Positions 10,311-29,833 are shown, counted from the stretch's first letter. The stretch: 64,000 bases of DNA from an uncultured Bacteroidales bacterium (GCA_947165685.1 CAMVBK010000003.1:39299-103298), one strand, 5' to 3'. A program made the numbers and translations. Notes: generated by a model not told the origin, from the sequence alone.

Positions 10311-10364
10311 GGTTGTCGAAGTCGTAGCCAATGTTTTCGCAACCCGATTGCAGAAAATATTGTG

Positions 10365-10372
10365 TATCTTTG
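10365..10372 (+). promoter_or_regulatory. -7 promoter box TAtcTTTG
   Basis: Lies 21 nt upstream of ATG 10394. Confidence 0.45.
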
Positions 10373-10393
10373 CCGCCGGAAAATATCGAGATT

Positions 10394-10591
10394 ATGGCAC
10401 ATAAAAAATTGTATAGAACGAGGAATGATGCCAAAATCGCCGGTGTCTGCGGCGGTCTGGCTGAATATTTGGACATAGACGTCACCATTGTCAGGATTGT
10501 CTTCCTGCTGTTGCTGCTGACCGGTTCGCTGGGTTTTTGGATCTACTTGATAATTTGGATTGTGGCACCGTGGGACTATATGGCGAGGTGA
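10394..10591 (+). CDS. PspC domain-containing membrane protein
   Basis: KLYRTRNDAKIAGVCGGLAEYLDIDVTIVRIVF followed by a TM helix. ATG 10394 was chosen inside the longer ORF. Confidence 0.8.
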   Translation: MAHKKLYRTRNDAKIAGVCGGLAEYLDIDVTIVRIVFLLLLLTGSLGFWIYLIIWIVAPWDYMAR

Positions 10592-10595
10592 TTAT

Positions 10596-12884: not shown

Positions 12885-12911
12885 CGGGTTCAGGGTGTCA
12901 ACTGCGCAGCG

Positions 12912-14192: not shown

Positions 14193-14252
14193 TGCAATGA
14201 ATATGAAGTTGCAAAAATACGAATTATATCGGCGCAGGGGCAGTTAAGAACA

Positions 14253-15071
14253 TCATTGCAACAATTCGCCCCAGTGCCGCTCTATTGGAATGCCGTTGTC
14301 GGGATTGAAGAAGTGATGGTTCGCCTCAATGACATGCGCCACGAAGTTCATCGCCTTCAGTACGCTGTCTTCCAGGGTGTTACCTTTCAAGTAATGCCCC
14401 ACCGTCACGGAAGAGAACACATCTCCGGTGCCGGAGAACTGCGATTCTACCTGACGGTACGGGAGCACCTTGATTCGTCCGACACCCTTGTCATACAGCA
14501 TCGTACAGGTCTGGCCCTCCATCAGCATACTGGAGATGATTACCGAATTATCGCCAATGCTTTGAAGTGTCATAAGCAAATCCACCGCCTCGTCATACGA
14601 CAAGTTAAAATTATCCAAATATTTGTCAGTCAAAAATTTAGCTTCTGTAACATTGGGGACTATGACATCCGCCACCTCGCAGGCCTTGCGCATGTAGTCC
14701 ACCGTTTCAGCCGACGCGCCATTATAGAGTTTCCCGTCATCGGCCATTATGGGATCGACAAATATGAACGTGCCTCGCGCCTTCAGGCGTCGGCAGTAGT
14801 CCGTCACAATCCGCGTTTGTTCCTCGGAGACCAGATAGCCCGTACAAACGGCATCCACCATAAAACCTTGTTCCTCCCAGATTTCAATGCTCTGTCGCAT
14901 GTATTCCGTTGTGTCCAACACTGCGAACTTGCCATAGCTGAAGTTGTTGGATACCAACGACGAAGGCAATCGGAAGATTTCGAACTTCAGGTGCGAAAGG
15001 ATTGGAGCCATCACGGACATGCCCAAGTTGCCGTAGCCGACAATGTCACCAATAAGTAAGATGCTGCTCAT
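14253..15071 (-). CDS. Pyridoxal/pyridoxamine kinase family protein
   Basis: ILLIGDIVGYGNLGMSVMAPILS, a VDPIMADDGKLY-type segment, and GTGDVFSS (ribokinase-like anion hole). Confidence 0.75.
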   Translation of the reverse strand: MSSILLIGDIVGYGNLGMSVMAPILSHLKFEIFRLPSSLVSNNFSYGKFAVLDTTEYMRQSIEIWEEQGFMVDAVCTGYLVSEEQTRIVTDYCRRLKARGTFIFVDPIMADDGKLYNGASAETVDYMRKACEVADVIVPNVTEAKFLTDKYLDNFNLSYDEAVDLLMTLQSIGDNSVIISSMLMEGQTCTMLYDKGVGRIKVLPYRQVESQFSGTGDVFSSVTVGHYLKGNTLEDSVLKAMNFVAHVIEANHHFFNPDNGIPIERHWGELLQ

Positions 15072-15130
15072 TAGGGGTTTAGGGGTTTAGAAGTTTAGAA
15101 GTTTAGAAGTTTAGAAGTTTAGGGGTTTAG
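15072..15130. repeat. Tandem octamer tract (gtttaggg x2, gtttagaa x4, gtttaggg) filling an entire intergenic spacer
   Basis: ttaggggtttaggggtttagaagtttagaagtttagaagtttagaagtttaggggtttag. It spans exactly from the COG0523 stop codon to the kinase start codon. Confidence 0.95.
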
Positions 15131-16419
15131 TTTTCTAAGCAGTTGTCGAGTTCGCGGGTGAGTTGGGGAATGTCCATGTTTTGTCCGATGAAGACGATTT
15201 TGACCATGCGGTCGCCGTATTCGGGGTCCCAGTCGCGCATGAACGAGGGGTCTTCTTGCATCAGTTGCACAAGATCTTCCTGCGGGGCGGTGGCGTACCA
15301 AAGACCCGCCTCGGTGAGCTTCTGCTGTACACCCGCTTGTTCGTAGAGGTACGACATGTCGCGGTATTCCTTGAAGTAGCACACGCCCTTGGCTCGGATG
15401 ATGTTCTTCGGGCGCTTTTTCGAGAGGAACTTGTTGAATTCGGCTATTTTAAACGGTTTCCGACGGTAATAGACGAACGTTGAAATCCCATACTCCTCCA
15501 CTTCTCCACCTTCGTGGTCATGGTGGTGGTGGTGATGGTGACCGTGATGACCATGGTCTTCTTCATCCTCGTCATCGTCATGGTGATGATGTTCGTCCTC
15601 GTGGTCATGGTGGTGATGCTCATGTTCGTCCTCCTCATCATGATGGTGGTGGTCGGCGCGGGCTTCGCGCTCCTCCTCCTCGGTGGTTTCGCGCTCGAGT
15701 TCGCGCACCCAGCCGGTGGAGACGGCCACATGCTCGTAGTCGAAGGCGTGGGTGTCAACGATGCGTTCCAGATCAACTTGCGCGTAGTTGGTTTCAATGA
15801 TAGTGGCACCGGGGTTAAGGTGGGTGATAATCTGGCGGAGGTGTGTGATTTCGCCACGGCTCACTTCATCCACTTTGTTGAGCAGCACGATGTTGCAGAA
15901 CTCAATCTGCTGGACGAGCAGGTTTTCAATGTCCTCCTCGCCGATATCCTCGCGCTCAAGGTCGCCGCCGCAGGCGAACTCGCTCTGCATCCGCAGGGCA
16001 TCGACCACCGTGACGATGCAGTCGAGGCGCGGGGTACCAAACTCCGTGTATTTGGGATTCATACGCGGGATGGTGGAGATGGTGCGGGCGATGGGCTCCG
16101 GTTCGCAGATGCCGCTGGCCTCGATGACAATGTAGTCGAACTGCTGCGACTTGACCAAATCAGACAGCTGATCGACCAAATCCATTTTCAGCGTGCAGCA
16201 TATACACCCGTTCTGCAGTGCCACAAGGCTGTCGTCCTTTTGGGCCACCACGCCGCCTTTCTGGATGAGCGAAGCATCAATGTTCACCTCGCCTATGTCA
16301 TTGACTATCACCGCAAACTTGATGCCCTTGCGGTTCGTCAGAATATGATTGACCAACGTTGTCTTTCCGCTTCCTAAATAGCCCGTCAGCAGTAACACCG
16401 GCACATCTTTCTTCGTCAT
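15127..16419 (-). CDS. COG0523 (CobW/ZigA/YeiR-like) GTPase metallochaperone with His-rich insert
   Basis: P-loop GYLGSGKTTL and CXCC motif GCICCT. A His/Asp/Glu tract covers about aa 245-306, followed by a CobW_C-like end. Confidence 0.9.
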   Translation of the reverse strand: MTKKDVPVLLLTGYLGSGKTTLVNHILTNRKGIKFAVIVNDIGEVNIDASLIQKGGVVAQKDDSLVALQNGCICCTLKMDLVDQLSDLVKSQQFDYIVIEASGICEPEPIARTISTIPRMNPKYTEFGTPRLDCIVTVVDALRMQSEFACGGDLEREDIGEEDIENLLVQQIEFCNIVLLNKVDEVSRGEITHLRQIITHLNPGATIIETNYAQVDLERIVDTHAFDYEHVAVSTGWVRELERETTEEEEREARADHHHHDEEDEHEHHHHDHEDEHHHHDDDEDEEDHGHHGHHHHHHHDHEGGEVEEYGISTFVYYRRKPFKIAEFNKFLSKKRPKNIIRAKGVCYFKEYRDMSYLYEQAGVQQKLTEAGLWYATAPQEDLVQLMQEDPSFMRDWDPEYGDRMVKIVFIGQNMDIPQLTRELDNCLEN

Positions 16420-17346: not shown

Positions 17347-17379
17347 ATTTTTTTAGGGGGTTTTAAAGGATGTGCCAGA

Positions 17380-18924
17380 TTATTCCACCACTTTCCAGTC
17401 CTGAATCTTGCGGGTTTCAGAGGAGAAGTTCACTCCGATCTTGTAGAGCTTGCGCGGGTCGTGGGCGAACGGCGCGGCGTATTGCCTCTCTTCGATCTGC
17501 GCCAGCGCCTCTTCGACGGATTTGTCTAACTTGAACTCGAACAGGTAGATGTAGTCGGCGGTCTGCACCACCATGTCCATGCGGCCGTCGGAAGTGTGCC
17601 GCTCGGTCTCCGTGTAGAAACCCAACATTTGGAAGATGAGGCTCACGGCATTGTGGAAGTAGAGCTCCGCGTCTCCGGCGATTTGGTAGTCTTGGTTGGC
17701 GAACAGGGACTCCAGACGTGCCATGAACTTCAAAGGCTCCCCTGCCTCTATCTCTTGCACGAAGTTCATCACAAACAGACCGGTCTTCTCTTTCCTGAGC
17801 GGCACGTAGTATGGGAACAGGAAGAGGTTGAACCCGCGTTCCACCTCTTGGTTCGGGAATCCGAGCTGGTAGGTTCGGAAACGTGCGTTGTAACTCTTGA
17901 TGGTAAGATAGCCGCTTTGGTAGAGCAGCGGTATTGGATTGGTGTCGATAGCGTCCAAACTCCCGAGCAAATCTGCCGTTACATTTTCGCGGGTGAGCTG
18001 CTCCAGGTCGTAATTATTGCGTTTCAGGACCTCCACCAGGAACGTGGGCGTGCCCGACTGGAACCACTGGTCGCCGAACTCCTTGCGTTTTAAGGCAGAC
18101 AACAGACTGAAAGGATTATACATCCCCGCGCTGTTGGGGTGGAAGTGGTAGCCGTCGTATTGTTCTTTCAGTCTCCCGTAGCACTCCTCCTTGGTCAGGC
18201 CGTTGGCCGCCGCCAGTTCCCCGACTTGTGCATCGATGTTGTCGCGGATTTCCTGCTCGGTGATGCCGCAGATTTCGGCATACTGCTCTGACAACGAGAT
18301 GTCTTCCAGGTTGTTGAGGTCGCTGAACACGCTCACTTTCGAGAACTTGGTCACACCGGTGAAGAAGGCGAGACGGATGCACGCATCCATGGTCTTGACC
18401 ACCCCGTAGAAACCTTTCAGAATCTTGCGGTAGTCGTCCTGAAGTTTCTCGTCGCCGATGGCCTGCAACAGCGGCTTGTCGTACTCATCCACCAGAATCA
18501 CCACCTGCCTGCCGGCTTGTTCGCAGGTGCGGCGGATGACGCCTTTGAATCGTTCGGAAAGAGTGTCTTCCGCCGGTTGTTTTCCGTAGGTTTCTTCAAA
18601 ACGTCGCAGATGCCCGTCAAGGATAGAGACCAGGGCTTCCTCGCTTCTGTAGTCGGCGGCGTTGAGGTCTATATGAAACACGGGATACGGGTTCCACTCG
18701 GTCTCTAATTTGCTGATGGCCAGTCCGTCGAACAATTCCTTTCGGCCTTGGAAGTAGGCCTCTAACGTGGTGATCAGCAGACTCTTGCCGAACCTGCGGG
18801 GACGGCTCAGAAAGAAGTATTTGCCGGAATTGGCCAAGTCATACACCAACTTCGTTTTGTCAATGTACAGAAAACCTTCTTTGATGATATTCGCGAATGT
18901 CTGTATGCCGATGGGGTATTTCAT
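17380..18924 (-). CDS. AAA-ATPase-like / PD-(D/E)XK nuclease family protein (DUF1703-type), copy 1
   Basis: MKYPIGIQTF...YIDKT...RPRRFGKSL (N-terminal ATPase-like domain). The C-terminal GRMDMVVQT..YIYLFEFK is a PD-(D/E)XK-like motif. Paralog at 28209-29753. Confidence 0.8.
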   Translation of the reverse strand: MKYPIGIQTFANIIKEGFLYIDKTKLVYDLANSGKYFFLSRPRRFGKSLLITTLEAYFQGRKELFDGLAISKLETEWNPYPVFHIDLNAADYRSEEALVSILDGHLRRFEETYGKQPAEDTLSERFKGVIRRTCEQAGRQVVILVDEYDKPLLQAIGDEKLQDDYRKILKGFYGVVKTMDACIRLAFFTGVTKFSKVSVFSDLNNLEDISLSEQYAEICGITEQEIRDNIDAQVGELAAANGLTKEECYGRLKEQYDGYHFHPNSAGMYNPFSLLSALKRKEFGDQWFQSGTPTFLVEVLKRNNYDLEQLTRENVTADLLGSLDAIDTNPIPLLYQSGYLTIKSYNARFRTYQLGFPNQEVERGFNLFLFPYYVPLRKEKTGLFVMNFVQEIEAGEPLKFMARLESLFANQDYQIAGDAELYFHNAVSLIFQMLGFYTETERHTSDGRMDMVVQTADYIYLFEFKLDKSVEEALAQIEERQYAAPFAHDPRKLYKIGVNFSSETRKIQDWKVVE

Positions 18925-19008
18925 AGGGATATATTTTCAGGCTGCAAAGATAGGATTTATTTCCGATAGCGGATGCCTTGTCGCTATGCTTTTGTGGTGT
19001 TTGGAATT

Positions 19009-19091
19009 ATGGCGCGAAGATAATGTTTTTTCGGGTTGGGGCGACAATTAAGATATTTTTTTGACGACAACAGAGACAACTTGGACAACAT
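19009..19091 (-). repeat. Inverted extra copy of the about-85-bp orphan-cassette leader element
   Basis: The reverse complement aligns at about 85% by eye with 23134-23216 (gttgtc..gttgtcgtcaaaaaa..atcttaattgt..ccaacccgaaaaaa..ttatcttcgcgccat). No toxin ORF follows it. Confidence 0.75.
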
Positions 19092-19164
19092 GATTGCCCC
19101 ATGGCGGGACGGGAGGATTTTGTCGGGTATGTGTCGGTGTGGATCATGGCGCGAACTATATTCA

Positions 19165-20415
19165 TCATCGTTTCGTAATAACAAATTCCACCCGCCGGTT
19201 CAGCCTGAAGTCATCATTGCCGAAACATTTCCTACATCCCTCTCCTGACAACTTGTTGCAATCGATTAAGGGATAGTAATCATAGCATTGCTTTCCCGTA
19301 ACGTAGGACGTGTCCACACCTTTATTCCCCAAATAGAAAATAATCTCTTCGTACATATACAACAACAAGCTTATAGAATAGGAGTCATCATATTCTTTAA
19401 GTGACAGGTGTATGTCAACCTCTACGGATTTCACATCTTTATGTGAGATCAAGTAAGCCGCAATCGAATCCAAGAGAACGCGATTCTGATAGTCGTTGGT
19501 GTCCAAATGCAGAGTTACAAACTGAAAACAAATATCATGCGTTCTGAGCATCACCTTTTTAGAATCAGAATGAGCCAGCTCGTGAACGGTTTTGACCACG
19601 GGAATGGTATCGTCTCGCAAAGTCGTCTGCGCACTTCTTTTGTTTGTTGATGAAAGACTATCGGCAACCGTCACCATTATGCGACTATTGTATTTCATCG
19701 CCTTGGATTTTTCATCTGCGGGGAGATTGCGTATAAACTCCTCGTCCAAAAGGTCCTTAAAATGAAAATAGTTGTCAAATTCCTCCGGATATACTATTTG
19801 ATAAGGTTCAAAAGGATGCATAAGGACATCTATCTTTGAAGAATCCACACCATGTTGTAACAATATGTTTTTCACGCAATTTATTCTTTGTTCGCACAGT
19901 GTCTGGTCTTCTGAAATACAAAAAGCATTTAGTTGTATGATGAAATTGTTGGCTTTCTGAATTTTCCCCAACCACAAAACCGGGTATGTATAAATAGTGT
20001 TGAAATTTGTGTCGGGAACGATGCTTGCACTGTCGAAAAAGAATGCAGGCAGTTGCGGTTCTGAAAAAATGTAGTTCATTTTAACATGAATAGTTGTATC
20101 AGATAAGTTTTTTGGAATCTTTAAGTCAAAGACTTTGTCATGATAGTGGAATTTGTGAACTCTGATTCTGAATGCGTGGTCTATGGCATTGTCCAACACG
20201 AAGTGTGCGACATGGGGTTCATCAAAAGAAGGGAATACAATAGAGTCGTCGATATAAACACTATAACTGGTAACAATCTCTTCTGTCAAAGAGTCTGTGG
20301 CAAATAACGTTAATTTAACCGATTGTGTTCTTGCTATACCTGGCAATATCAACAAGATGCTTAATCCAATCCATGCAAAGATACTATTGATTTGATTCCT
20401 GCTCATATAACGCAT
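19165..20415 (-). CDS. Exported protein with two degenerate OmpA-like (peptidoglycan-binding) regions
   Basis: Has an N-terminal signal/TM segment and ends in FRLNRRVEFVITKR (OmpA C-terminal signature). A second OmpA-like stretch lies around FFFDSASIV...LCEQRINCVKNILLQHGVD. The gene is AT-rich. Confidence 0.5.
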   Translation of the reverse strand: MRYMSRNQINSIFAWIGLSILLILPGIARTQSVKLTLFATDSLTEEIVTSYSVYIDDSIVFPSFDEPHVAHFVLDNAIDHAFRIRVHKFHYHDKVFDLKIPKNLSDTTIHVKMNYIFSEPQLPAFFFDSASIVPDTNFNTIYTYPVLWLGKIQKANNFIIQLNAFCISEDQTLCEQRINCVKNILLQHGVDSSKIDVLMHPFEPYQIVYPEEFDNYFHFKDLLDEEFIRNLPADEKSKAMKYNSRIMVTVADSLSSTNKRSAQTTLRDDTIPVVKTVHELAHSDSKKVMLRTHDICFQFVTLHLDTNDYQNRVLLDSIAAYLISHKDVKSVEVDIHLSLKEYDDSYSISLLLYMYEEIIFYLGNKGVDTSYVTGKQCYDYYPLIDCNKLSGEGCRKCFGNDDFRLNRRVEFVITKR

Positions 20416-20723
20416 TCCTTTCTGTTTGCTCTTTTTCCTTCATCTCTATCATATCAGATGGCGTTTCAACAAAATCAGAGTTACTTTAATCCCGTATATT
20501 TCTTTCAATTTTAGCTGTTGATAAACCAGCAAATCATTGTTGATAAATAAATTAGCAACAACTTGCTGTTCTCGTGTCTTTCACCTGTTTTTGCGATTGC
20601 TTACTACAACAAACAATTGGCGAGAAATAAACACGGCAGCAAAAATACAAATTAAAAACGACAGAATCAACAGTTTCGTTTTTTTTCATCATCGATCAAT
20701 TTCGTTCATCCAGGCTTGCCGAA

Positions 20724-22511
20724 TTGGCTAACAAGTCATTGGGAATCAAATGGATAAATGCGGGCAGCAACTATTTCAACGATTATTCGCAGGAGGCCGT
20801 TCCCCTTTACAACGGGAACATTTCCGCCCTTTCCGAAAGTATCTATAACTTATGGAACAGAGGGATTCTAAAACTTTTCCGTTACGACAAGTTGAACAGG
20901 ATCAAAAGGATGCGAACGGCCGCACATCATTTCGAGGGGTCTGGATGGGAGACACCCTCCGACAACTTTGCCACGGATTACACCTACGACTGGAACGGAA
21001 ATTTGCTATCTTTGCGGCGCAAAAACCAATACGGCGAGGAGATGCACGATATCCGATATACGTACCCGAATGGCAACAATCGCCTGGGAAGCATAGCTGC
21101 CACCGGTATTTCATCCAGTGTCTATCAGTACGATGCGTTGGGCAACCTGGTGCGCGACAATGCCGAGGGTTTGACCGTGGGCTGGAACGCCTTGGGAAAA
21201 GTGGATACCATCCGCAGGAACGGTAACCTCCTGTCCGCATTCCGCTACAGTCCCACGGGCCAGCGGCAGGTGAAGACCGACTCCTCGGGCACGGCCTTCT
21301 ACATCCACGACGCCACGGGCAACGTGATGTGCATTTACCGGCAGGATGGCGACACCCTGAGAGCCACGGAGCGGTATCTATATGGCAGCAAGCGTTTAGG
21401 CATGTTGGAGCAACAGGTGTGGATTGCCGCGGGCGGCGTGGCACGATTGCAGGATGCCAGCACCATAGGGGCCCGTGTTTACGAGTTTACCGACCATTTG
21501 GGCAATGTGACCTACACGGCACAAGACCGGAAATACCTTGTGCCGGACAGTTATGGCCAACTTCAATATCTCCCTTCCACGGTCACCTACACCGACTACT
21601 ACCCCTTCGGCTACCCCATGCCAGGCCGAAGTTCCTACATGGGGGGTTATCGGTACTTCTTCAATGGGCAGGAGTCTGATAATGAGGTGTTTGGGGAAGT
21701 GATGAGTTTGACCGCTGAATTCTGGCAGTACGATACGAGGTTGGGCCGGAGGTGGAATGTGGACCCCGTGTTCAAGGAGTACGAGAGTCCGTATGCGTGC
21801 TTCGCGGGGAATCCGGTGCGGTTTGCGGATCCGAGAGGAAAGGATGGACGCGTTACTTATACTGAGACTGAAAATGGAGGAGACATTGTTGTTGAAACAA
21901 AATTCTTCGTTTATGGCAAAGGTGCAGAGATTGCTGTAGAAAACGCGAACAAACAGTTTGCTAAGTTAAACACATCCACTTCTGTTGTGATTGATGGAAA
22001 GACATACAATATCAGGCTGAATATCACATGGGAGGTTCGTCAAGATCTTGCAGACATGGACATTGAGAATATGGATTATGCCGATCTTCAATCAATAGAA
22101 GGGTATCAGGAAGGGGACAATTTCCTAAAAGTAGGGGTTCCCGTAGGAGGAGGAAGAACTGGTTTCCTCGGTGAAGGATACAAGGGCGGAAATACAGGTT
22201 ATTCTTTGGTAACATCCGCAGATGCGGTACTCCATGAATCTTTCCACAATCTGGGATTTAAAGATACGTATTATCAAAAAGGATTCGAACGCGACGTAAT
22301 GTCAAGTGGAGCACTTGCGGGACAAGAAATCAATCAAATTCATTACGAGGCTTTGATTCCTATTATTTTGCAAAACTATAATTACATCAAAGAACGTGTC
22401 ATTGCCAATCAGACGTTGGGGACTAACTGGCCTGTCCATAAATTGGGACTGGACATTAACAATCCGAAACAGTTTCATATTTTGCTACGAAGTATCTATC
22501 TGGATTATTAA
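20724..22511 (+). CDS. RHS repeat-associated core protein, 5'-truncated, with an HExxH C-terminal toxin domain
   Basis: YD repeats YTYDWNGNLLSL and YQYDALGNLV, plus DHLGN and YYPFG. The core end is GGYRYFFNGQESDNE..RLGRRWNVDPV..FADPRGKDG, followed by an unrelated tail containing HESFH. An in-frame stop sits at 20628 and the first start is TTG, so the usual long N-terminal shell is absent. Confidence 0.8.
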   Translation: MANKSLGIKWINAGSNYFNDYSQEAVPLYNGNISALSESIYNLWNRGILKLFRYDKLNRIKRMRTAAHHFEGSGWETPSDNFATDYTYDWNGNLLSLRRKNQYGEEMHDIRYTYPNGNNRLGSIAATGISSSVYQYDALGNLVRDNAEGLTVGWNALGKVDTIRRNGNLLSAFRYSPTGQRQVKTDSSGTAFYIHDATGNVMCIYRQDGDTLRATERYLYGSKRLGMLEQQVWIAAGGVARLQDASTIGARVYEFTDHLGNVTYTAQDRKYLVPDSYGQLQYLPSTVTYTDYYPFGYPMPGRSSYMGGYRYFFNGQESDNEVFGEVMSLTAEFWQYDTRLGRRWNVDPVFKEYESPYACFAGNPVRFADPRGKDGRVTYTETENGGDIVVETKFFVYGKGAEIAVENANKQFAKLNTSTSVVIDGKTYNIRLNITWEVRQDLADMDIENMDYADLQSIEGYQEGDNFLKVGVPVGGGRTGFLGEGYKGGNTGYSLVTSADAVLHESFHNLGFKDTYYQKGFERDVMSSGALAGQEINQIHYEALIPIILQNYNYIKERVIANQTLGTNWPVHKLGLDINNPKQFHILLRSIYLDY

Positions 22512-22515
22512 AACC

Positions 22516-23130
22516 ATGAGACTGACTACGTTAATTTTATATTTGCTGTTACCCATATTCTGTATTGGGCAAAGCAGTGCTGAACAAAAGTTCTGTTTCT
22601 GCTTTTTTGACAAATTTGGAGCAGAAGTAACCCCTTCTGAAATGCTGGTGCTGGACAACACAGGGGGTGTTTTTAATTTAGACAGTTCCAAATGTTTTCG
22701 TCATAAGGCCGACACGTCTTATTCTTTTATTTTGCAGGTGATAGACAGAAATTATTACTTTTCCCAAAAACAGTATGATGCCAATGAGATGTCGGGCTGT
22801 GACACGGTTCGATTGGAAAACATGGAGTGTATTAACAAACTCGCCTTCAGCTCTCACCGATTGAAACTGAACAACCGTCAGAAAAAGCAGATCGCCTCCT
22901 TCTTCTCAAACAGTAGGCGCGGGTTCCATCGCATTGCCATTCTTGTAGGGAAACCAACACGTGCGAAAACAGAAGCGAAACAGTGCGTCAACGATATCAT
23001 CAGATTATACGAAAAGGATTTGAAAGCAAGAAACATTCAGCAAACGCCCGAAGTGATGGTGCATTTCTACAATTTGCCTGAGGGGGGAAATACTTTTACG
23101 TTTGAGATTGAAGCGTATGATTACAAATAA
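22516..23130 (+). CDS. Putative immunity protein 1 (exported)
   Basis: Starts 5 nt after the toxin stop. Signal peptide MRLTTLILYLLLPIFCIGQSS. AT-rich with no known motif; assigned by position. Confidence 0.5.
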   Translation: MRLTTLILYLLLPIFCIGQSSAEQKFCFCFFDKFGAEVTPSEMLVLDNTGGVFNLDSSKCFRHKADTSYSFILQVIDRNYYFSQKQYDANEMSGCDTVRLENMECINKLAFSSHRLKLNNRQKKQIASFFSNSRRGFHRIAILVGKPTRAKTEAKQCVNDIIRLYEKDLKARNIQQTPEVMVHFYNLPEGGNTFTFEIEAYDYK

Positions 23131-23201
23131 CTGTTGTTCCGCGTTGTCCCCGTTGTCGTCAAAAAACACATCTTAATTGTTTCACCAACCCGAAAAAAAC
23201 T

Positions 23202-23209
23202 TATCTTCG
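23202..23209 (+). promoter_or_regulatory. -7-like box TAtcTTCG 4 nt upstream of the orphan-1 ATG
   Basis: cttatcttcgcgccATG. The same arrangement occurs at 25152-25159, with a degenerate version at 26585-26594. Confidence 0.4.
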
Positions 23210-23213
23210 CGCC

Positions 23214-24155
23214 ATGAACCACACCTCCACATACCCGCCAAAATTCCCCCGTCCCGCCATGGGGGGTTATCGGTACTTCTTCAACGGGCAGGAGGCTGAT
23301 AATGAGGTGCTTGGAGAAGGGATGAGTTTGGCCGCTGAATTTTGGCAGTACGACACGAGATTGGGCAGGAGGTGGAATGTGGACCCTGTGTTCAAGGAGT
23401 ACGAGAGTCCGTATGCGTGCTTCGCGGGGAATCCGGTATGGTTTGCGGACAGATTTGGAGCGGATACCGCATTCGACGATAACATAGCTAGAAATAATTT
23501 CTTAGAAAGTTATCAGTGGATTATTGGCCAAATATCATCAATCGAGAATAAAACTGCTGCTATTCGAGCGCAAGCTGCCCAGAAAGGATGGAATGACAAT
23601 AAAACAAATAGTAAAATCGACAAATTATTTGGTAAATACGACTACAACACGCTTCTTGAGATGAGGCAAGGATTTGAGGAAATCATGAGAGATCCTAACA
23701 TAATCGTCACATATTCAACAAACGAAGATATGATAGAAGACTTTACCGGGGGGCACACAAAACATGTTGACGACCTACATGTGAATGTATATTTCCGACG
23801 AAACAAGTTAGGGACCCTCATTCATGAATCCCGTCACGCATGGGGAGTGATAAGAAAAGAGTGGTCATTTAGAGGCGGATATGATACCACAGACGAACTA
23901 GTTGCTTTCACTTGGCAAAGTGTTAAAGATCCGACCGCAGTGAATTTATTTAAAGAAACCGTTTCAAAAATATACTATCGGAATGATTTGAGCCAAATGA
24001 TTGAAATGAGCTTGAGCAGTGCCATCAACTATTATTACATTGAAGTCTTGCATAAGAACATGACCAGAAGTGCTATACCTATACCAGAACCCTTCACTCA
24101 AATAAAAAACATTCAAACCGCAGGTTCTTATATCAGAAAACTCCTGAAAAGATAA
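23214..24155 (+). CDS. Orphan RHS C-terminal module 1 (core end plus an HExxH-containing tail)
   Basis: MNHTSTYPPKFPRPAMGGYRYFFNGQEADNE..RLGRRWNVDPVFKEYESPYACFAGNPVWFADRFG, then a unique tail containing LIHESRHAWG. Confidence 0.75.
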   Translation: MNHTSTYPPKFPRPAMGGYRYFFNGQEADNEVLGEGMSLAAEFWQYDTRLGRRWNVDPVFKEYESPYACFAGNPVWFADRFGADTAFDDNIARNNFLESYQWIIGQISSIENKTAAIRAQAAQKGWNDNKTNSKIDKLFGKYDYNTLLEMRQGFEEIMRDPNIIVTYSTNEDMIEDFTGGHTKHVDDLHVNVYFRRNKLGTLIHESRHAWGVIRKEWSFRGGYDTTDELVAFTWQSVKDPTAVNLFKETVSKIYYRNDLSQMIEMSLSSAINYYYIEVLHKNMTRSAIPIPEPFTQIKNIQTAGSYIRKLLKR

Positions 24156-24203
24156 CTTTAGTTTAGAAGAAGTATTCAATGTCCTCAAATAGTCACATAT
24201 AAA

Positions 24204-25151
24204 ATGAAACGTGCTCTTTATAATCTTGTAACATTCCTCTGTTTTCTAAACTTGCCATCGCTGCATGCACAAAACCAACCACCCGTTTGGATAGAAATTG
24301 TTCAGGGTGGCTTCCCCAATTACATAATCTTTTCACGTTATGGGGTGATTGTGTCAACGTTTGATTATAATCTCAATGACCGCTTGCACCTTTTTAATAC
24401 CTCATACTACCCGACAAGGACATTAGGTAACAGTCACATAGATAGTCTGCTTGAATATGTCGTTTTTCAGTATCAAAACTCAGAGCACAAAAAATTTATC
24501 ACTCATGATGTGTTGATATTGGATGGCTCTTATACAGAAATCAGAATCCATAACGGTCATTCAATTAACACATTAAGGACAACCGAAGAGTGCTACAGCA
24601 AAGAGATGGATATTATTGAACGAATGGCAAATCAAATCCTTAGCGAATTATCGGACTCTAACAGAATAGATCTCGGTGGGTATTGCGATCATTGTGAAAT
24701 CGTCAAAGCATCGCCTTATTGTCATTTCAAAACAATGGAGAATCCGACATTCTATGGATTTTTCTTCCAAATGATTGTTGATGACGAAGTTCTTCTTACT
24801 CTTCATGATGACCTTGGCATATTATATCAAGATACCGATGTGATTTTCATACCACGATTCCCGAACCGCGTCAAAAGGCATGAGTTCATGAATTGGAGAA
24901 AGCTGCTTTATCAAACGATAAGAACGGATATCCTCCAAAGTCAATTTGACACAACACCTTCATATACAGGTGGCTATTTGTTGGTTCGACTTGATGACAA
25001 GTGGGCATATATGAATCACGTGGACAGAAAAGTTATTAATAAATGGCTGAACAAAATGGAATGCGTCGTGCCACGCGCTTATCGCAAATCCTTCAAACGC
25101 AAAAAAACAATGATACTCCAATCGTGGAATAAAAATGTATCTAATATTTAG
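24204..25151 (+). CDS. Putative immunity protein 2 (exported)
   Basis: Signal peptide MKRALYNLVTFLCFLNLPSLHAQ. Assigned by its position after the orphan toxin. AT-rich. Confidence 0.5.
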   Translation: MKRALYNLVTFLCFLNLPSLHAQNQPPVWIEIVQGGFPNYIIFSRYGVIVSTFDYNLNDRLHLFNTSYYPTRTLGNSHIDSLLEYVVFQYQNSEHKKFITHDVLILDGSYTEIRIHNGHSINTLRTTEECYSKEMDIIERMANQILSELSDSNRIDLGGYCDHCEIVKASPYCHFKTMENPTFYGFFFQMIVDDEVLLTLHDDLGILYQDTDVIFIPRFPNRVKRHEFMNWRKLLYQTIRTDILQSQFDTTPSYTGGYLLVRLDDKWAYMNHVDRKVINKWLNKMECVVPRAYRKSFKRKKTMILQSWNKNVSNI

Positions 25152-25159
25152 TATCTTCG
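25152..25159 (+). promoter_or_regulatory. -7-like box TAtcTTCG 4 nt upstream of the orphan-2 ATG
   Basis: agtatcttcgcgccATG. Confidence 0.4.
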
Positions 25160-25163
25160 CGCC

Positions 25164-26219
25164 ATGATCCGCACCGCCACATACCCGCCCCAGCCCCCTC
25201 GTTACTATAAGGGGGGGTATCGGTACTTTTTCAACGGGCAAGAGGGAGATAACGAGGTGCTTGGGGAGGGGACTCTGCACGCCTTCGAGTACCGCATGCA
25301 CGACACGCGCACCGGGCGGTTCTGGAGCGTTGATCCCTTGGCGGGGAAGTTCCCGTGGTGGTCCACTTATCAGTTCGCAGGACTTATGCCAACATGGAGC
25401 AGAGAGCTGGAAGGGTTGGAACCGCTTAATAAAGGGAGTTATAATGGTCAAGGTGCTTATGCTCCTGTATTGGACGAAAACAATAATCCCGTTGATGGTA
25501 CAGAAGACCAAACTTGGATATGGAACAACGACACTTGGAATCAATCTGAATATGCCATTGTATATGAAATAATGAACAGTGTTTTCAAAAACGCCAAACC
25601 CTCGTTATTGAGAGGTGCCGAAGTCGCAGTAAATTTGTATGGCTCCACGTTTGGCATAAATAATCGGGAGGCTATTTGTCATTTCTTTGCGCAAGCAGGA
25701 CATGAAAGTGCTGGATTCACTAAAGTCGAAGAGAGTTTCAATTACACTGTCAAAGGTCTGTTGGGAACCTTCGGTAAATATTTCTACGTAGGAGCTCCTG
25801 TGGAAGGCAAATTTAATGCTGAAGAATATGGCCGAACAAACGATCATCCGGCAAACTATGAAGGTATTGCCAATATTGTTTATGACAATCGAATGGGTAA
25901 TGGGAAAAATGAAGGCTATTTGTATCGAGGTCGAGGATTAATACAATTAACAGGAAAGTCAAATTATCAAGCTTTTACGAACTACTTGAATAAAACGTTC
26001 ACGAACAATACAGTTGATTTTGTCCAATCACCTCAACTGGTGGCAACAGATCAATATGCGGTATTAAGTGCCATGTGGTTTTTCAAAAAGAACGTTATTG
26101 ACAAGATTGACATTGATAATGCAAGTGTAAAAGATGTGACGAAAATTGTTAATGGAGGGTATAATGGGTTGAAAGACCGCGAGAGTAAATATGAACAACT
26201 AAAAAACACTCTAAAGTGA
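25164..26219 (+). CDS. Orphan RHS C-terminal module 2 with a GH19/COG3179-like peptidoglycan hydrolase (chitinase/lysozyme) tail
   Basis: The core end is diverged: GGYRYFFNGQEGDNE..TRTGRFWSVDPLAGKFPWWSTYQFAG. The tail has ICHFFAQAGHESAGF, YRGRGLIQLTGKSNYQAF and LSAMWFF, which are GH19-type motifs. Confidence 0.75.
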   Translation: MIRTATYPPQPPRYYKGGYRYFFNGQEGDNEVLGEGTLHAFEYRMHDTRTGRFWSVDPLAGKFPWWSTYQFAGLMPTWSRELEGLEPLNKGSYNGQGAYAPVLDENNNPVDGTEDQTWIWNNDTWNQSEYAIVYEIMNSVFKNAKPSLLRGAEVAVNLYGSTFGINNREAICHFFAQAGHESAGFTKVEESFNYTVKGLLGTFGKYFYVGAPVEGKFNAEEYGRTNDHPANYEGIANIVYDNRMGNGKNEGYLYRGRGLIQLTGKSNYQAFTNYLNKTFTNNTVDFVQSPQLVATDQYAVLSAMWFFKKNVIDKIDIDNASVKDVTKIVNGGYNGLKDRESKYEQLKNTLK

Positions 26220-26581
26220 AACAATACATCTTCATTTTATTTTGGACATTAATTGGGGTATTCGTTTCTTCTGCTCAAGTCAGGATAGATTGCAATACAA
26301 AAGATTTGTATGATAATATTCAAGGCGTGTGGAGGCAAACTGATGGTTCTGGAAATGCTCTGGCAATAGTAGATAGCAATGCGTATTTTTTGTATGGCAC
26401 AGATCAAAGTGTTTGGCAAGATGATGTTGGAAACTTATTCAGCATAGTGAAAAATGACAAAGAAGAATCATTTTTTATATGGTGGTTAGATATGTTAGTT
26501 CAAGAATTTGTTTTGGAAAAAGATACATTGCTGCTGTTGGATTTTAAAGGACGTTCTGAAACGTATATTCGAATTAAGTAA
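26216..26581 (+). CDS. Putative immunity protein 3 (exported)
   Basis: GTG start overlaps the toxin stop (gtga). Signal peptide MKQYIFILFWTLIGVFVSSAQ. Confidence 0.5.
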   Translation: MKQYIFILFWTLIGVFVSSAQVRIDCNTKDLYDNIQGVWRQTDGSGNALAIVDSNAYFLYGTDQSVWQDDVGNLFSIVKNDKEESFFIWWLDMLVQEFVLEKDTLLLLDFKGRSETYIRIK

Positions 26582-26594
26582 AAACTATCGCGCC

Positions 26595-27517
26595 ATGAAT
26601 TTCACGACCACATACCCGCCAAAATCCTCCCGTTCCGCTATGGGGGTATATTGGTATTTCTTCAACGGGCAGGAGGCTGATAATGAGGTGCTTGGAGAGG
26701 GGCGAGTTTGACCGCGGAATTCTGGCAGTACGACACGAGGCTGGGCCGGAGGTGGAATGTGGACCCTGTTTTCAAGGAGTATGAAAGTCCGTATGCGTGC
26801 TTTGCAGGGAACCCGGTGTGGTTTGCGGATCCGAATGGAGACAGTAGTGTTGTTGATGCTAAAGGGTACATGATTTATTATGATGAGAACGACAAGGATT
26901 TGCGAGTTTTCATTAATGAGAACGGTAAGTTAAGACAAATTGGAGAATTAGGAAAGACAATTGAAGCAGACACTTGGTTCGCTAATTTGCTAAAAGAAAA
27001 TGCTGCCGCCGCGAAAGATTCTTGGAATCCTGTTAGCTTCAGGAACAAAGTGAAGCAGTATGGTGAGTGGGATTATAAATATGCTAGTAAAGGCAATAAA
27101 GAAAATGAGAACATCCGTTATCACTTGTTAGGCATTGCCTTTTACAGAAAAGACAAAAACAACAAGGACGCTGATTTGCCAGAGACCTATTTCTCGTTTA
27201 ATGGAATGATAGGAAGAGCCGAAGATTTGAACAACTTTCACTTTGGTGTTGTTGGCAAAGCATTCGGATGGTTCCCTGAGACCTTTATGCTAAAACAGGC
27301 TGGAAAAGCCGAAATGGATAAATGGGCGGAAGAAGGGCGGACTGTTCCTGCTGAATGGACCCCAAGAATAGAAGTTATCAAATTTCGAGGCGGAATGATA
27401 CCAACCTCTTATACCACAACAAAGTTACTGCCTCCTTACGGGGATAACCCTATTGACCATGAGTGGATAAAACGCGGATTTGAATATTATAATAATATGA
27501 CACTATCAAATGACTGA
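26595..27517 (+). pseudogene. Orphan RHS C-terminal module 3, frameshifted
   Basis: MNFTTTYPPKSSRSAMGVYWYFFNGQEADNEVLGEG stops at 26709-26711. The core continues in another frame (AEFWQYDTRLGRRWNVDPV...FADPNGDS). Compared with orphan 1, 1 nt is missing near 26697-26702. Confidence 0.7.
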
Positions 27518-27520
27518 AAG

Positions 27521-28132
27521 ATGAACCGTATCCCACGTATAATCGTCCTATCAATTCTGATTGTCATAGGTGTCGTAGGTGTAGCTTATGTGGCAATTAT
27601 GGCGTATATACACTATGATGTGTTCGGAAAAAGTCCGTCGTATGAAGGGACCAGACAAAATTTCATCAATAATGAGTTATATTTTCAGAAGACAGAAGAT
27701 TGTTTTCAGAAAATTTTCCAATGCTGTTCTTCCGTCGATTCAACAATGGAACTCATTAGATTCACTATTGACAATTCTAGCAACAATTTTGTGTTTTTTC
27801 AATATTTTTCGATAGAAGACAGAAGGCAACTTCTATTCCCGATTAGGGATTCTGGTCTTGAAATAAGCCAAAATCAAAAAGAAACATTGCAGTCCAACGG
27901 CATCACTCCTCAAATGATAGAAACACTTTATTCTAATCTAAAAAAAACAAATTGTCGTTCGGTGGAGAAAGATAAACTAAATTCTAACAACACGATATTT
28001 ATGACTTTTAAAATACTCGATTATTGTTCTATTCAATATATGTTTTATCCTCAACCTTTTGAAGAAGATTCCATTAAGAGTCATATCTCCAACACGCCAC
28101 TCGGTCGGCGAGTAAGGATCTATGTCGAATAA
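27521..28132 (+). CDS. Putative immunity protein 4 (N-terminal membrane anchor)
   Basis: Starts 3 nt after the toxin stop. TM helix IIVLSILIVIGVVGVAYVAIMAY. Confidence 0.45.
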   Translation: MNRIPRIIVLSILIVIGVVGVAYVAIMAYIHYDVFGKSPSYEGTRQNFINNELYFQKTEDCFQKIFQCCSSVDSTMELIRFTIDNSSNNFVFFQYFSIEDRRQLLFPIRDSGLEISQNQKETLQSNGITPQMIETLYSNLKKTNCRSVEKDKLNSNNTIFMTFKILDYCSIQYMFYPQPFEEDSIKSHISNTPLGRRVRIYVE

Positions 28133-28181
28133 TTCCACAAATGTTGTCCAAGTTGTCCAAGTTGTCTTTCTAAATAAATTG

Positions 28182-28189
28182 TATCTTTG
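28182..28189 (+). promoter_or_regulatory. -7 promoter box TAtcTTTG for ATPase copy 2
   Basis: Lies 19 nt upstream of ATG 28209. Confidence 0.45.
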
Positions 28190-28208
28190 CGGCAAAAATT
28201 TTGTCATT

Positions 28209-29753
28209 ATGAAATACCCCATCGGTATACAGACATTCGCCGAAATTATCGACAAAGGATACGTCTATATAGATAAAACGGCATTGGTGTATAAACTGGC
28301 CAACAGCGGATGCTACTATTCCCTGCATCGTCCCCGCAGGTTCGGCAAGAGTCTGCTGATCACCACGTTGGAGGCCTACTTCCAAGGCCGAAAGGAATTG
28401 TTCGACGGACTGGCCATCAGCAAGTTAGAGACCGAGTGGAACCCGTATCCCGTGTTTCATATAGACCTCAACGCCGCCGACTACAGAAGCGAGGAAGCCC
28501 TGGTCTCTATCCTTGACGGGCATCTGCGACGTTTTGAAGAAACCTACGGAAAACAACCGGCGGAAGACACTCTTTCCGAACGATTCAAAGGCGTCATCCG
28601 CCGCACCTGCGAACAAGCCGGCAGGCAGGTGGTGATTCTGGTGGATGAGTACGACAAGCCGCTGTTGCAGGCCATCGGCGACGAGAAACTTCAGGACGAC
28701 TACCGCAAGATTCTGAAAGGTTTCTACGGGGTGGTCAAGACCATGGATGCGTGTATCCGTCTCGCCTTCTTCACCGGTGTGACCAAGTTCTCGAAAGTGA
28801 GCGTGTTTAGTGATCTTAACAACCTGAAAGACATTTCGTTGGACAACAGGTATGCTGAGATTTGCGGTATCACGGAGAAAGAAATCCATGACAACATTGA
28901 CGCGGAGGTGGAAAGCATGGCCTCGGCTAACGGGATGAGCAAGGACGAGTGCTATGAGAAACTGAAAAAACAGTACGACGGCTACCATTTCAGCAAGAAC
29001 GGCACAGGAATGTACAATCCTTTCAGCCTGCTTAACGCGCTTGACAGCCAAGAGTTCGGCGACCAGTGGTTCCAGTCAGGTACGCCCACATTCTTAGTGG
29101 AGGTGATGAAGCGCAACCACTATGACCTGGAACAGCTCGCCCGCGAGGAGGCCACGGCCGACCTGTTGGGCAGTCTGGATGCCATCGACACCAACCCGAT
29201 CCCGCTGCTTTATCAGAGCGGCTATCTCACCATAAAAGGCTATGACCCTGAGTTTTGCACCTATCGACTGGGGTTCCCAAACCAAGAGGTGGAACGAGGC
29301 TTTTCCCGTTTTCTATTCCGATACTACACCCCTGCTTCCCAAGGACAGGGCAGCTTTGTAAAGGATTTCGTCTTGGCGGCGCGAGCCGGCCAGACCGACG
29401 AGTTCATGAAACGGCTGGAGACATTATTCGCCGGACAAGACTACCAGATAGCGGGTGACGCGGAGCTCTACTTCCACAACGCCGTCGCGCTCATCTTCAA
29501 GATGGTGGGCTTCTACACGGAGACCGAGCGGCACACTTCCGACGGCCGCATGGACATGGTGGTGCAGACCGCCGACTACATCTACCTGTTCGAGTTCAAG
29601 TTAGACAAATCCGTCGAAGAGGCGCTGGCGCAGATCGAAGAGAGGCAATACGCCGCGCCGTTCGCCCACGACCCGCGCAAGCTCTACAAGATCGGAGTGA
29701 ACTTCTCCTCTGAAACCCGCAAGATTCAGGACTGGAAAGTGGTGGAGCGGTAA
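28209..29753 (+). CDS. AAA-ATPase-like / PD-(D/E)XK nuclease family protein (DUF1703-type), copy 2
   Basis: Colinear with copy 1 and starts with the same MKYPIGIQTF. The 28122 start of the ORF track was rejected because it runs through the promoter box. Confidence 0.8.
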   Translation: MKYPIGIQTFAEIIDKGYVYIDKTALVYKLANSGCYYSLHRPRRFGKSLLITTLEAYFQGRKELFDGLAISKLETEWNPYPVFHIDLNAADYRSEEALVSILDGHLRRFEETYGKQPAEDTLSERFKGVIRRTCEQAGRQVVILVDEYDKPLLQAIGDEKLQDDYRKILKGFYGVVKTMDACIRLAFFTGVTKFSKVSVFSDLNNLKDISLDNRYAEICGITEKEIHDNIDAEVESMASANGMSKDECYEKLKKQYDGYHFSKNGTGMYNPFSLLNALDSQEFGDQWFQSGTPTFLVEVMKRNHYDLEQLAREEATADLLGSLDAIDTNPIPLLYQSGYLTIKGYDPEFCTYRLGFPNQEVERGFSRFLFRYYTPASQGQGSFVKDFVLAARAGQTDEFMKRLETLFAGQDYQIAGDAELYFHNAVALIFKMVGFYTETERHTSDGRMDMVVQTADYIYLFEFKLDKSVEEALAQIEERQYAAPFAHDPRKLYKIGVNFSSETRKIQDWKVVER

Positions 29754-29833
29754 AAGTTTGTCATCGCGCCAAGACTCCCACAATCACTGAGCGTGGACAA
29801 CTTCTGTTTTCAGACCTGCAAGGCCAGAATCCC

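Follow-up and report, generated by a model that had tools for sequence, protein, structure and literature searches.

A 64,000-nucleotide stretch of DNA from an uncultured Bacteroidales bacterium (GCA_947165685.1 CAMVBK010000003.1:39299-103298, the whole of which is referred to below as the window) carries, between positions 17,380 and 29,753, an AT-rich array of Rhs-type toxin genes that is capped at each end by a gene for a DUF1703 ATPase-nuclease (Table 1). The two capping genes, WL on the left and WR on the right, are inverted relative to each other and colinear, with 84.5% identity over 1583 nt. Both are intact open reading frames (ORFs) for 514 aa in the ORF listing, and a third copy was not found in the window. 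Each has the domain order that defines DUF1703 proteins: an N-terminal PF09820 (AAA-ATPase_like) domain, scoring 241.9 bits in WL and 236.3 bits in WR (gathering cutoff 26.1 bits), and a C-terminal PF08011 (PDDEXK_9) domain scoring 77.3 and 76.5 bits (cutoff 25.5 bits). The Walker A residues G46-K47-S48, the Walker B residues D146-E147 and the triad D450/E463-x-K465 are invariant in an alignment of 34 homologous sequences and present in both arms. Since these catalytic motifs are intact and the ratio of nonsynonymous to synonymous divergence (dN/dS) between the arms is ~0.08-0.16 (Nei-Gojobori), both copies are judged to be functional genes. The WL protein is identical to database protein P0001; an exact look-up of the WR protein returned no database record. 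WR truly begins at 28209; starting from the ATG further upstream, at 28122, would place a TATCTTTGCGG box (~28180-28195) within the coding sequence, and it is the MKYPIG start that is conserved. (The ATPase genes have TATCTTTGCGG or TATCTTTGCAG ~12-18 nt 5' of their ATG.)

Table 1. Window coordinates of the arm genes, their near-identical blocks and the features of the enclosed island.
Feature	Coordinates	Strand	Description
WL, left DUF1703 ATPase-nuclease paralog	17380-18924	-	adjoins thioesterase gene; types u1 (upstream), a (5'), c (centre)
Block B, left copy	17384-17619	-	last 236 nt of gene, encodes PD-(D/E)XK domain; equals 29511-29746
Block A, left copy	18326-18804	-	codons 41-198; near-identical to 28329-28807
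Cassette-junction relic	19009-19090	-	GTTGTC repeats; toxin start decayed, with ATA for ATG; adjoins WL promoter on its 5' side
Orphan Rhs toxin 5'-end relic, 59 nt	19097-19155	-	90% match to 23206-23264, inverted
416-aa AT-rich gene	19165-20415	-	signal-peptide-like N-terminus; putative immunity slot of relic minus-strand array
5'-truncated Rhs/YD-repeat protein, 595 aa	20724-22511	+	last ~300 aa of shell, core, C-terminal toxin
Putative immunity gene 1	22531-23130	+	signal peptide; assigned by position and ORF only
Orphan toxin 2 (tox2)	23214-24155	+	Rhs core N-terminus, unknown C-terminal domain; TIGR03696 20.8 bits
Putative immunity gene 2 (imm2)	24204-25151	+	exact protein indexed in 54 blocks of public collection
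Orphan toxin 3	25164-26219	+	weak GH19/lysozyme-like C-terminus, PF00182 22.6 bits (cutoff 25.5); core match
Putative immunity gene 3	26216-26581	+	assigned by position only
Orphan toxin 4 (tox4, Ntox44)	26595-27517	+	PF15607 38.5 bits (cutoff 24); frameshifted in core near 26700
Putative immunity gene 4 (imm4)	27521-28132	+	assigned by position only; exact protein in L012, L013
Tandem 9-nt repeat, three units of GTTGTCCAA	28143-28166	+	third unit cut at GTTGTC; immediately upstream of WR promoter
WR, right DUF1703 paralog	28209-29753	+	convergent with TPR gene; types u2 (upstream), b (5'), d (centre)
Block A, right copy	28329-28807	+	pairs with 18804-18326
Block B, right copy	29511-29746	+	outer end of inverted homology
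Degenerate orphan-toxin-start relic	29754-29787	+	directly after WR stop; homology with L042 runs 34 nt past stop

Similarity between the two arms is not evenly distributed. (Segments were delimited by 50-nt sliding comparison and exact-run scan, and synonymous and nonsynonymous divergence, dS and dN, was calculated for each by the Nei-Gojobori method.) Block A extends over 479 nt with 3 mismatches, all of them synonymous (0 nonsynonymous; dS 0.028); 329 nt of it (18708-18380 = 28425-28753) form the longest stretch without a mismatch. Block B (codons 441-513) is 236 nt long with 0 mismatches and a dS of 0. The diverged segments, with ~72% nucleotide identity, are saturated at synonymous sites: dS is 1.53 in the 5' part (codons 1-40; 72% amino acid identity between WL and WR) and 2.35 in the centre (codons 199-440; dN 0.18, 72-75% amino acid identity). 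The juxtaposition of dS near zero in the blocks with saturated dS beside them implies recent homologous exchange, and segment-wise dS rules out purifying selection as the source of the identical blocks. Constraint specific to block A is likewise not the explanation of its identity between the arms, since a third paralog diverges more in this region than anywhere else in the gene (76% nucleotide identity). Gene conversion is well supported, and recent homologous exchange between the arms strongly so. The original prediction had described WL and WR as inverted, colinear, mosaic paralogs undergoing gene conversion, and it stands on each of these points, with block coordinates right to within a few bases; it had also named, as part of the outcome that would overturn it, blocks explained by purifying selection alone with diverged synonymous sites, and the block dS values are the opposite of that. 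The N-terminal 40 residues and the centre are indeed the diverged parts, as it stated, but at 72-75% rather than 60-70% amino acid identity, and its "central third" is almost half of the protein.

Other strains show what has become of the arms elsewhere. All comparison contigs are short-read metagenome assemblies. Those recovered by exact-protein look-ups match the window flanks at 96-100% identity, and the majority of them end within the ATPase gene, as a repeat would cause; those that pass through one arm are L001/L002 on the thioesterase side and L029 and L031/L032 on the TPR side. The arm copies can be typed by upstream region (u1 or u2), 5' segment (a or b) and centre (c or d), with blocks A and B common to all of them at 93-100% identity. 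On the thioesterase side, contigs L003-6 and L010, which do not cover the upstream and 5' segments, have centre c, as does WL, and L001/L002 are u1-a-d; on the TPR side, L029 is also u1-a-d, and L031/L032 are u1-b-d. These combinations imply that segments reassort across either block boundary, and also from one side of the island to the other.

The same contigs bear on whether the mosaic could be an artefact, either of a chimeric or repeat-collapsed metagenome contig or of strong purifying selection mistaken for exchange. The source is apparently a metagenome-derived contig (144,639 bp), and with most short-read contigs from other samples ending inside the ATPase gene the interior orientation of the window is without independent confirmation. 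Nevertheless, an artefact is highly improbable: apart from the dS contrast, which disposes of selection, the two outer junctions recur in independent contigs from other samples, as do, on both sides, the sequences of blocks A and B (93-100%), and L001/L002, L029 and L031 each assemble right through one arm. Moreover, contigs L011 and L012, assembled independently from run SRR21639186, match the window at 100% and end precisely 30 nt into block B and block A, respectively, as is expected of true repeats. We read these ends as branching of the assembly graph, assuming assembly with k = 31, which we take to have been the setting used.

A 3.2-kb module consisting of an orphan toxin of 312 aa (tox312), an immunity gene of 214 aa (imm214) and the ATPase gene is adjacent to the thioesterase gene in L001/L002 and to the TPR gene in L029 and L031. 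The L001 copy is 97% identical to that of L029 and 94% identical to that of L031, which is similar to the divergence of the flanks between strains. The simplest route to this arrangement would be one crossover in block B flipping the whole interior; a copy of the module on both arms would fit equally well. By either route, flip or module copying, the arms are used as recombination substrates. The original prediction that the inverted homologies could flip the island is accordingly half sustained: the homologies are real and the module is found on both sides, but the inversion breakpoint that has been mapped (see below) lies in the Rhs core and not in the arms. Flipping of the island through its arms is plausible and has indirect support.

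Reassortment of segments is not confined to this locus. At E < 1e-100, ~8000 database clusters match the ATPase, and 44 typed homologs are made up of a few discrete types for each of five segments, almost freely combined; the types reassort across at least 6 loci. (The original prediction had likewise called DUF1703 a multi-copy family.) Protein P0005, for example, combines the WL centre with an N-terminus and block A of the L042 kind. P0016 draws on three sources: L014 for its N-terminus, L042 for block A and the second half of the centre, and WL for the first half of the centre. Segment boundaries seem to fall at conserved motifs, e.g. Walker A and FTGVTKFSK. The family loci have diverse neighbours: a sigma factor and an acyltransferase at L014-17 (no Rhs by tblastn in L014 and L017), an M48 peptidase and a chromate transporter at L047-49 (no Rhs by tblastn), and a C25 peptidase at L050 (no Rhs in the gene/Pfam table; no tblastn screen was made), while the paralog at L042-46, between an ABC/GntR operon and MutS2, does have Rhs. 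The solitary orthologs L014 and L017, which represent the third paralog locus, are 92-100% identical in most 50-nt windows, with identity falling to 50-76% over ~150 nt in the block A region (equivalent to WL 18652-18503), so that segment replacement also occurs at island-free loci. Because the same shuffling is seen among dispersed paralogs, exchange need not be strictly arm-to-arm, and the window mosaic is one instance of a family-wide habit. Combinatorial exchange of segments also explains why assemblies break at DUF1703 genes.

Intragenic recombination without homogenisation has been described for the DUF1703 paralogs of Cardinium cCpun (Siozios et al. 2019, PMC6387759), which have the same domain architecture and are likewise multi-copy and of unknown function. 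In contrast with those, the paralogs described here show far less divergence from one another, and what they exchange are segments of discrete types; two of them form an inverted pair around a toxin island; and there is no evidence of secretion.

The site at which the island stands can be reconstructed from related species. Scanning of species-representative genomes with the thioesterase protein yielded 11 uncultured rumen Bacteroidales; in all 11 the TPR gene is directly upstream of, and co-directional with, the acyl-ACP thioesterase gene, and the island is absent. This is the synteny comparison that had been suggested together with the original prediction. In the closest relative, L023 (TPR protein 88% identical), a single ATPase relic lies between the two genes, in the orientation of WL. 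Its promoter and 5' end are of the b type, as in WR, and what is left of the coding sequence is ~44 N-terminal codons joined, in a different frame, to the final 8. One DUF1703 copy was consequently resident at this site before the two species split. The present insert is 12.4 kb long, and its limits are set by the 3' ends of WL and WR. Just beyond 29787, the TPR-proximal spacer keeps GTTGTCCA, which may be a vestige of the ancestral promoter region. In related species the short spacer between the TPR and thioesterase genes is made up of short tandem repeats that differ by species (AACCGTAAAT-, TAACCCTT- and CATAATT-type; L019 4860-4990, L024 9885-10000, L025 9955-10000, L020 6180-6220), and the site therefore seems intrinsically unstable. 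As for a composite transposon or IS-bounded element, a target-site duplication (17347-17383 against 29747-29833) was not seen by eye, no systematic search having been made, Pfam and NCBIfam place no transposase family in the terminal genes, and the closest species has a single deleted copy instead of an empty site. A tRNA-targeted integrative island was rejected, the window having no tRNA.

The GC content of both arms (0.537-0.539) is that of the flanks (0.53-0.54), while the interior has 41.6% overall (35-57% by 500-bp window, with the Rhs shell and core stretches GC-rich). On its gene content the interior is a Rhs-type polymorphic-toxin array, and not a generic toxin island; the enclosed AT-rich toxin island of the original prediction holds in this more specific form. 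Nine co-directional genes occupy 20724-28132. The orphan modules at 23214, 25164 and 26595 each open with a conserved core repeat of ~120-240 nt, continue into a variable C-terminal toxin and are followed by a small gene in the immunity position, for which an immunity function is putative. The core repeat families D1/D2 have 3-4 copies, at 21582, 23202, 25152 and 26583. The core model TIGR03696 matches three cassettes at 25.3, 20.8 and 25.0 bits, all below the cutoff of 32.5 bits but consistent. Tox2 contains core repeats D1/D2, and residues 15-312 of its L031 copy are 100% identical.

Much of the array is degenerate. Of full-length Rhs with a delivery domain the window has only the 595-aa, 5'-truncated fragment at 20724-22511, in which YD motifs are visible and which scores below threshold for both RHS_repeat (20.3 bits, cutoff 22) and TIGR03696 (25.3 bits); it has 89% nucleotide identity to L035 6530-7611, within the distal part of a 2257-aa Rhs gene, and this homology starts abruptly at 20760. 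Tox4 is split (26595-26711/26708-27517) by a 1-nt deletion in its core (EGRV followed by a stop, in place of the EGMSLAAEF of tox2), a split that is repeated in contig L012; by its sequence, this toxin gene is a pseudogene or requires a frameshift. Exact look-up of the imm4 protein returned only contigs of <2 kb, and putative immunity gene 1 has no Pfam family match. On the minus strand, the relic at 19009-19090 is an inverted match to 23132-23215, and the presence of two cassette-start relics and the 416-aa gene beside WL implies a former second array that would have read toward WL. The 416-aa gene has no Pfam or NCBIfam match, no homolog in any comparison locus and no exact-protein record; its position directly upstream of a toxin-start relic is what suggests the immunity slot. 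Neither a recombinase or LytTR homolog nor a homolog of the giant protein described below was found in the window by tblastn (with the L031 integrase among the queries). Considered as a potential site-specific invertible element, then, the window lacks a cognate invertase, and in place of short crossover sites has homologies of 236-479 bp of coding DNA.

A sequence element recurs in the island. Tandem GTTGTC repeats with a 9-nt period (GTTGTCCAAGTTGTC...) are found in the window at 19066-19089 (-), 23143-23157 (+) and 28143-28166 (+), at L042 7930-7960 and at L023 ~3740; a motif scan gave 5 exact matches in the window where 0.3 were expected, and none of the 5 lies outside the island. Some cassette junctions have the element in common with the b-type promoters of WR, L042 and L023 (the same element is 5' of the L042 paralog, and a single GTTGTC is 5' of the L023 relic), and two rearrangement junctions abut GTTGTC repeats. 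Most cassette junctions are without it. The repeats could be an operator (they resemble AlgR-type sites, and a LytTR regulator is encoded in sister islands) or a recombination site.

Sister strains retain fuller islands. In L032/L034, found by look-up of imm2, the order is: 283-aa gene (-), 1997-aa gene (-), 168-aa gene (-), LytTR gene (+), XerD/XerA-like tyrosine recombinase gene (+), tox2, imm2, tox312, imm214, ATPase, TPR (-). In L035 it is: 1997-aa gene (+), 283-aa gene (+), 2257-aa Rhs gene (+), 187-aa immunity gene, tox2, imm2, tox312, immunity gene, with the contig ending 270 nt into the ATPase gene. Positions 1-771 of L035 are the exact reverse complement of L032 1-771 (100%), while 9055-12904 are colinear at 99.6%, which implies inversion of a central segment of ~17.3 kb, containing the full Rhs gene and the XerD-like recombinase gene, between otherwise near-identical strains. 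On the right, this inversion ends within the core repeat of tox2; on the left, its breakpoint is beyond the compared DNA and is inferred to be in an inverted core. In L039/L040, moreover, the Rhs shell is fused directly to the tox2 toxin domain. Together, inversion and fusion make the core repeat a demonstrated site of rearrangement. The full architecture, as read from these sequences, is that of two inverted arrays around an invertible centre, with the centre lost in the window strain. The 1997-aa protein (L032 139-6132, minus strand; L035 1499-8272, plus strand) has an N-terminal ITGGPSQPE motif and no Pfam match in its N-terminal 1167 aa (L031 scan). Together with the 283-aa protein and the 2257-aa Rhs protein, which has a faint DUF6443 match, it likely forms a delivery operon; all three are absent from the window.

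The recombinase of L031-L036 is a 267-268-aa Phage_integrase (PF00589, 90 bits) whose best NCBIfam matches are XerA/integron integrase and XerD. It is encoded next to the LytTR regulator and directly 5' of the co-directional AT-rich array. Exactly such a layout defines rAID systems, and it is conceivable that an integron-like or rAID-like, site-specific activity of this enzyme is what rearranges the island, perhaps with the GTTGTC repeats as its sites, and that the ATPase arms are incidental. We consider this decidedly unlikely. Identical tracts are present in the arms of the window even though it encodes neither a recombinase nor a LytTR homolog; breakpoints, where mapped, fall not at short defined sites but within extended homology, namely the core (~200 bp) and the ATPase blocks (236-479 bp); the GTTGTC element is missing from most cassette junctions; and the mosaicism of the family at island-free loci would be left unexplained. 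With rAID-1, for which Ross et al. 2019 (bioRxiv 10.1101/471110) ask, among other things, for at least 2 co-directional downstream genes with a GC content of <=41% (against nine co-directional genes and an interior GC of 41.6% in the window), the locus shares the AT-rich array of co-directional short genes in a Bacteroidales genome, the repeated junction sequences and, in sister strains, the XerD-like tyrosine recombinase immediately 5' of the array. It differs in that the window itself has no recombinase, in that cassettes keep long Rhs-core toxin ORFs and not immunity genes alone, in that arrays end in a DUF1703 gene, which the rAID descriptions consulted do not mention, and in its host, an uncultured rumen lineage.

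The whole is best explained, with a probability that we put at about 0.68, as a strain-variable Rhs cassette island (17384-29746) lying between ancient, inverted DUF1703 genes that are passive substrates of recombination. WL and WR are ancient paralogs of a resident multi-copy gene on which RecA-type homologous recombination would act, exchange being limited to regions with enough remaining similarity for pairing; branch migration would be blocked by the diverged 5' and central segments, which would give blocks A and B their sharp edges. Exchange could be conversion (non-reciprocal), crossover (reciprocal) or a combination of the two. A single crossover would turn the whole interior around; two in succession, one in block A and one in block B, would swap the central segments and restore the orientation. 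The ~200-bp Rhs core repeat heading each cassette is a second substrate, through which cassettes are replaced, deleted and inverted. The window island is a decayed representative (no full-length Rhs, no recombinase, one frameshifted toxin, and an opposite-strand array surviving only as relics), whose current value most plausibly lies in the immunity genes that it retains.

Several points weigh against this explanation. Only the window spans both arms, and no alternative orientation of this particular island was seen. The reciprocal b-c product that a block A crossover should leave on the thioesterase side was not found there. The module on both sides could reflect duplication onto both arms instead of inversion, and short-read metagenome contigs can mis-join at repeats. 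Finally, the association of the ATPase with Rhs may not be purely passive, since L042 carries Rhs cassettes and a toxin-start relic follows WR. (Two candidate contig readings were also considered and rejected: P0003, with a b N-terminus and a c centre, is not the thioesterase-side reciprocal recombinant, as it sits at a different locus; and joining L001/L002 with L037/L038, which would have put tox2-imm2 beside the thioesterase gene, fails because the 178-aa gene that they share is only 67% identical in nucleotide sequence.)

The last of these points leads to an alternative in which the DUF1703 ATPase-nuclease is an active part of the cassette system, a boundary or anchor or a recombination-starting nuclease that nucleates or mobilises Rhs orphan arrays. 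At L042, an unrelated locus, 5 nt separate the ATPase stop codon from an intact orphan Rhs toxin, behind which come an immunity gene and a further toxin stub, and the sequence at 29754-29787 is a relic of the same arrangement after WR; the GTTGTC element and the junctions that abut it, the bounding of the insertion by the 3' ends of both ATPase genes, and weak fold matches to TnsC and the Hjc resolvase also point in this direction. The alternative is nevertheless unlikely. At L014-17, L047-49 and L050 the ATPase gene is solitary among housekeeping genes, and Rhs accompanies the family at 2 of 5 sites (with the thioesterase/TPR pair counted as one) in what is a non-random sample. Both arms have host-like GC. 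No NCBIfam family covers the ATPase genes, no recombinase-like feature is evident, and the definitions of rAID (bioRxiv 10.1101/471110; PMC12247911) name no such ATPase. A PDB sequence search with the ATPase gave no match. PADLOC returned only a sub-threshold match to RNaseH_pPIWI_RE (E ~5e-3), on which membership of a defence system was rejected. The AlphaFold2 model is poor (pLDDT 64, pTM 0.42), and Foldseek matches to it (Apaf-1, ORC, STAND, TnsC and RdrA and, at the C-terminal end, Hjc and HincII) lie in the E-value range 1e-3 to 1e-2; these support a generic AAA+ plus PD-(D/E)XK assignment and nothing beyond, and a structure-based function was set aside. The original prediction of a role in island mobility or defence is not supported: host-like arm GC, a single deleted copy in L023, paralog loci free of Rhs and the lack of a PADLOC match all speak against it.

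A more ambitious version, which we regard as doubtful, would make the complete island a reversible Rhs shufflon. Two inverted orphan arrays, each capped by DUF1703, would flank a centre containing main Rhs, XerD-like recombinase and LytTR regulator, whose flipping would let either array be read into, or donate a toxin domain, without loss of DNA; DUF1703 would be a dedicated anchor or initiator at several sites, and the GTTGTC element would serve all of them for control or recombination. Nothing specific on Rhs toxin switching by inversion emerged from a literature search.

Setting this version aside and returning to cassettes between passive arms, the locus can be placed among known systems. 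In Rhs loci, the main toxin domain can be displaced by orphans. Inversion and gene conversion between inverted repeated genes are familiar from rrn operons, copies of insertion sequences and the hsdS shufflons of type I restriction-modification systems. As in these, inverted homologies of a few hundred bp flank a flippable segment, and conversion tracts homogenise parts of the repeats; in contrast to these, the window genome has no dedicated invertase, the repeats are protein-coding paralogs under purifying selection, and no phenotype switch from flipping the whole island is evident. Rhs/YD-repeat polymorphic toxin loci with downstream orphan cassettes are treated by Zhang et al. 2012 (PMC3482391) and, for the orphan rhs of Salmonella, in PMC7043789. 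The island resembles such loci in the conserved core repeat that heads every cassette, in its variable C-terminal toxins (Ntox44, lysozyme-like and unknowns) each with a small gene after it, in a cassette set that varies by strain and in the replacement of the main toxin in L039/L040. It is unlike them in having two opposed arrays, one surviving only as relics in the window genome, in being capped at both ends by inverted, unrelated ATPase-nuclease genes, and in the inversion of a central segment with main Rhs through the core repeat in a sister strain, the window being without full-length Rhs. Rhs orphan arrays and rAID-1 clusters come closest to this locus, which varies on them by its inverted pair of arrays with DUF1703 paralogs at the ends; in the window the cassettes are of the known kind, and the recombinase and full-length Rhs are missing.

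How orphan toxin/immunity arrays of Bacteroidales are built and reshuffled has been described as unresolved (PMC12247911). This locus offers a natural series of close strains in which cassette replacement, fusion of a toxin domain to main Rhs and a 17-kb inversion are directly readable, and two defined homologies, the Rhs core repeat and the DUF1703 blocks, that are testable as substrates. It also shows an abundant, uncharacterised Bacteroidales family evolving by combinatorial exchange of discrete segments, with the warning that any one DUF1703 copy should not be taken as a simple ortholog. If the association between ATPase and Rhs should be non-random, it would provide a first functional context for DUF1703.

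Nearly all orphan toxin ORFs begin within a conserved TATCTTCGCGCCATGA (23199-23216, 25149-25166, 26583-26597 and L042 9551-9565), the start string of tox4 being the variant CTATCGCGCCATGA; the Rhs-core junction string is TATCTTCGCGCCATG. TATCTTCGCGCCATGA resembles the TAnnTTTG -7 box of Bacteroidetes promoters, yet directly abuts the ATG, and the orphan modules may be transcribed independently, perhaps leaderlessly. A scan for sigma-70 promoters and terminators is uninformative for Bacteroidetes. About 2 kb from the ATPase/orphan-toxin mini-array of L042, at 13257-14261 (+), is a gene for a 334-aa protein with a C-terminal EQGIEQGREQG repeat, which looks like a Rpn/YhgA-type PD-(D/E)XK "recombination-promoting nuclease". 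Outside the island, and unrelated to it, window positions 15127-16419 (-) encode a CobW-family GTPase with an extreme His/Asp/Glu-rich insert (HHHHDEEDEHEHHHHDHEDEHHHH...), suggestive of a metal-chaperone type protein.

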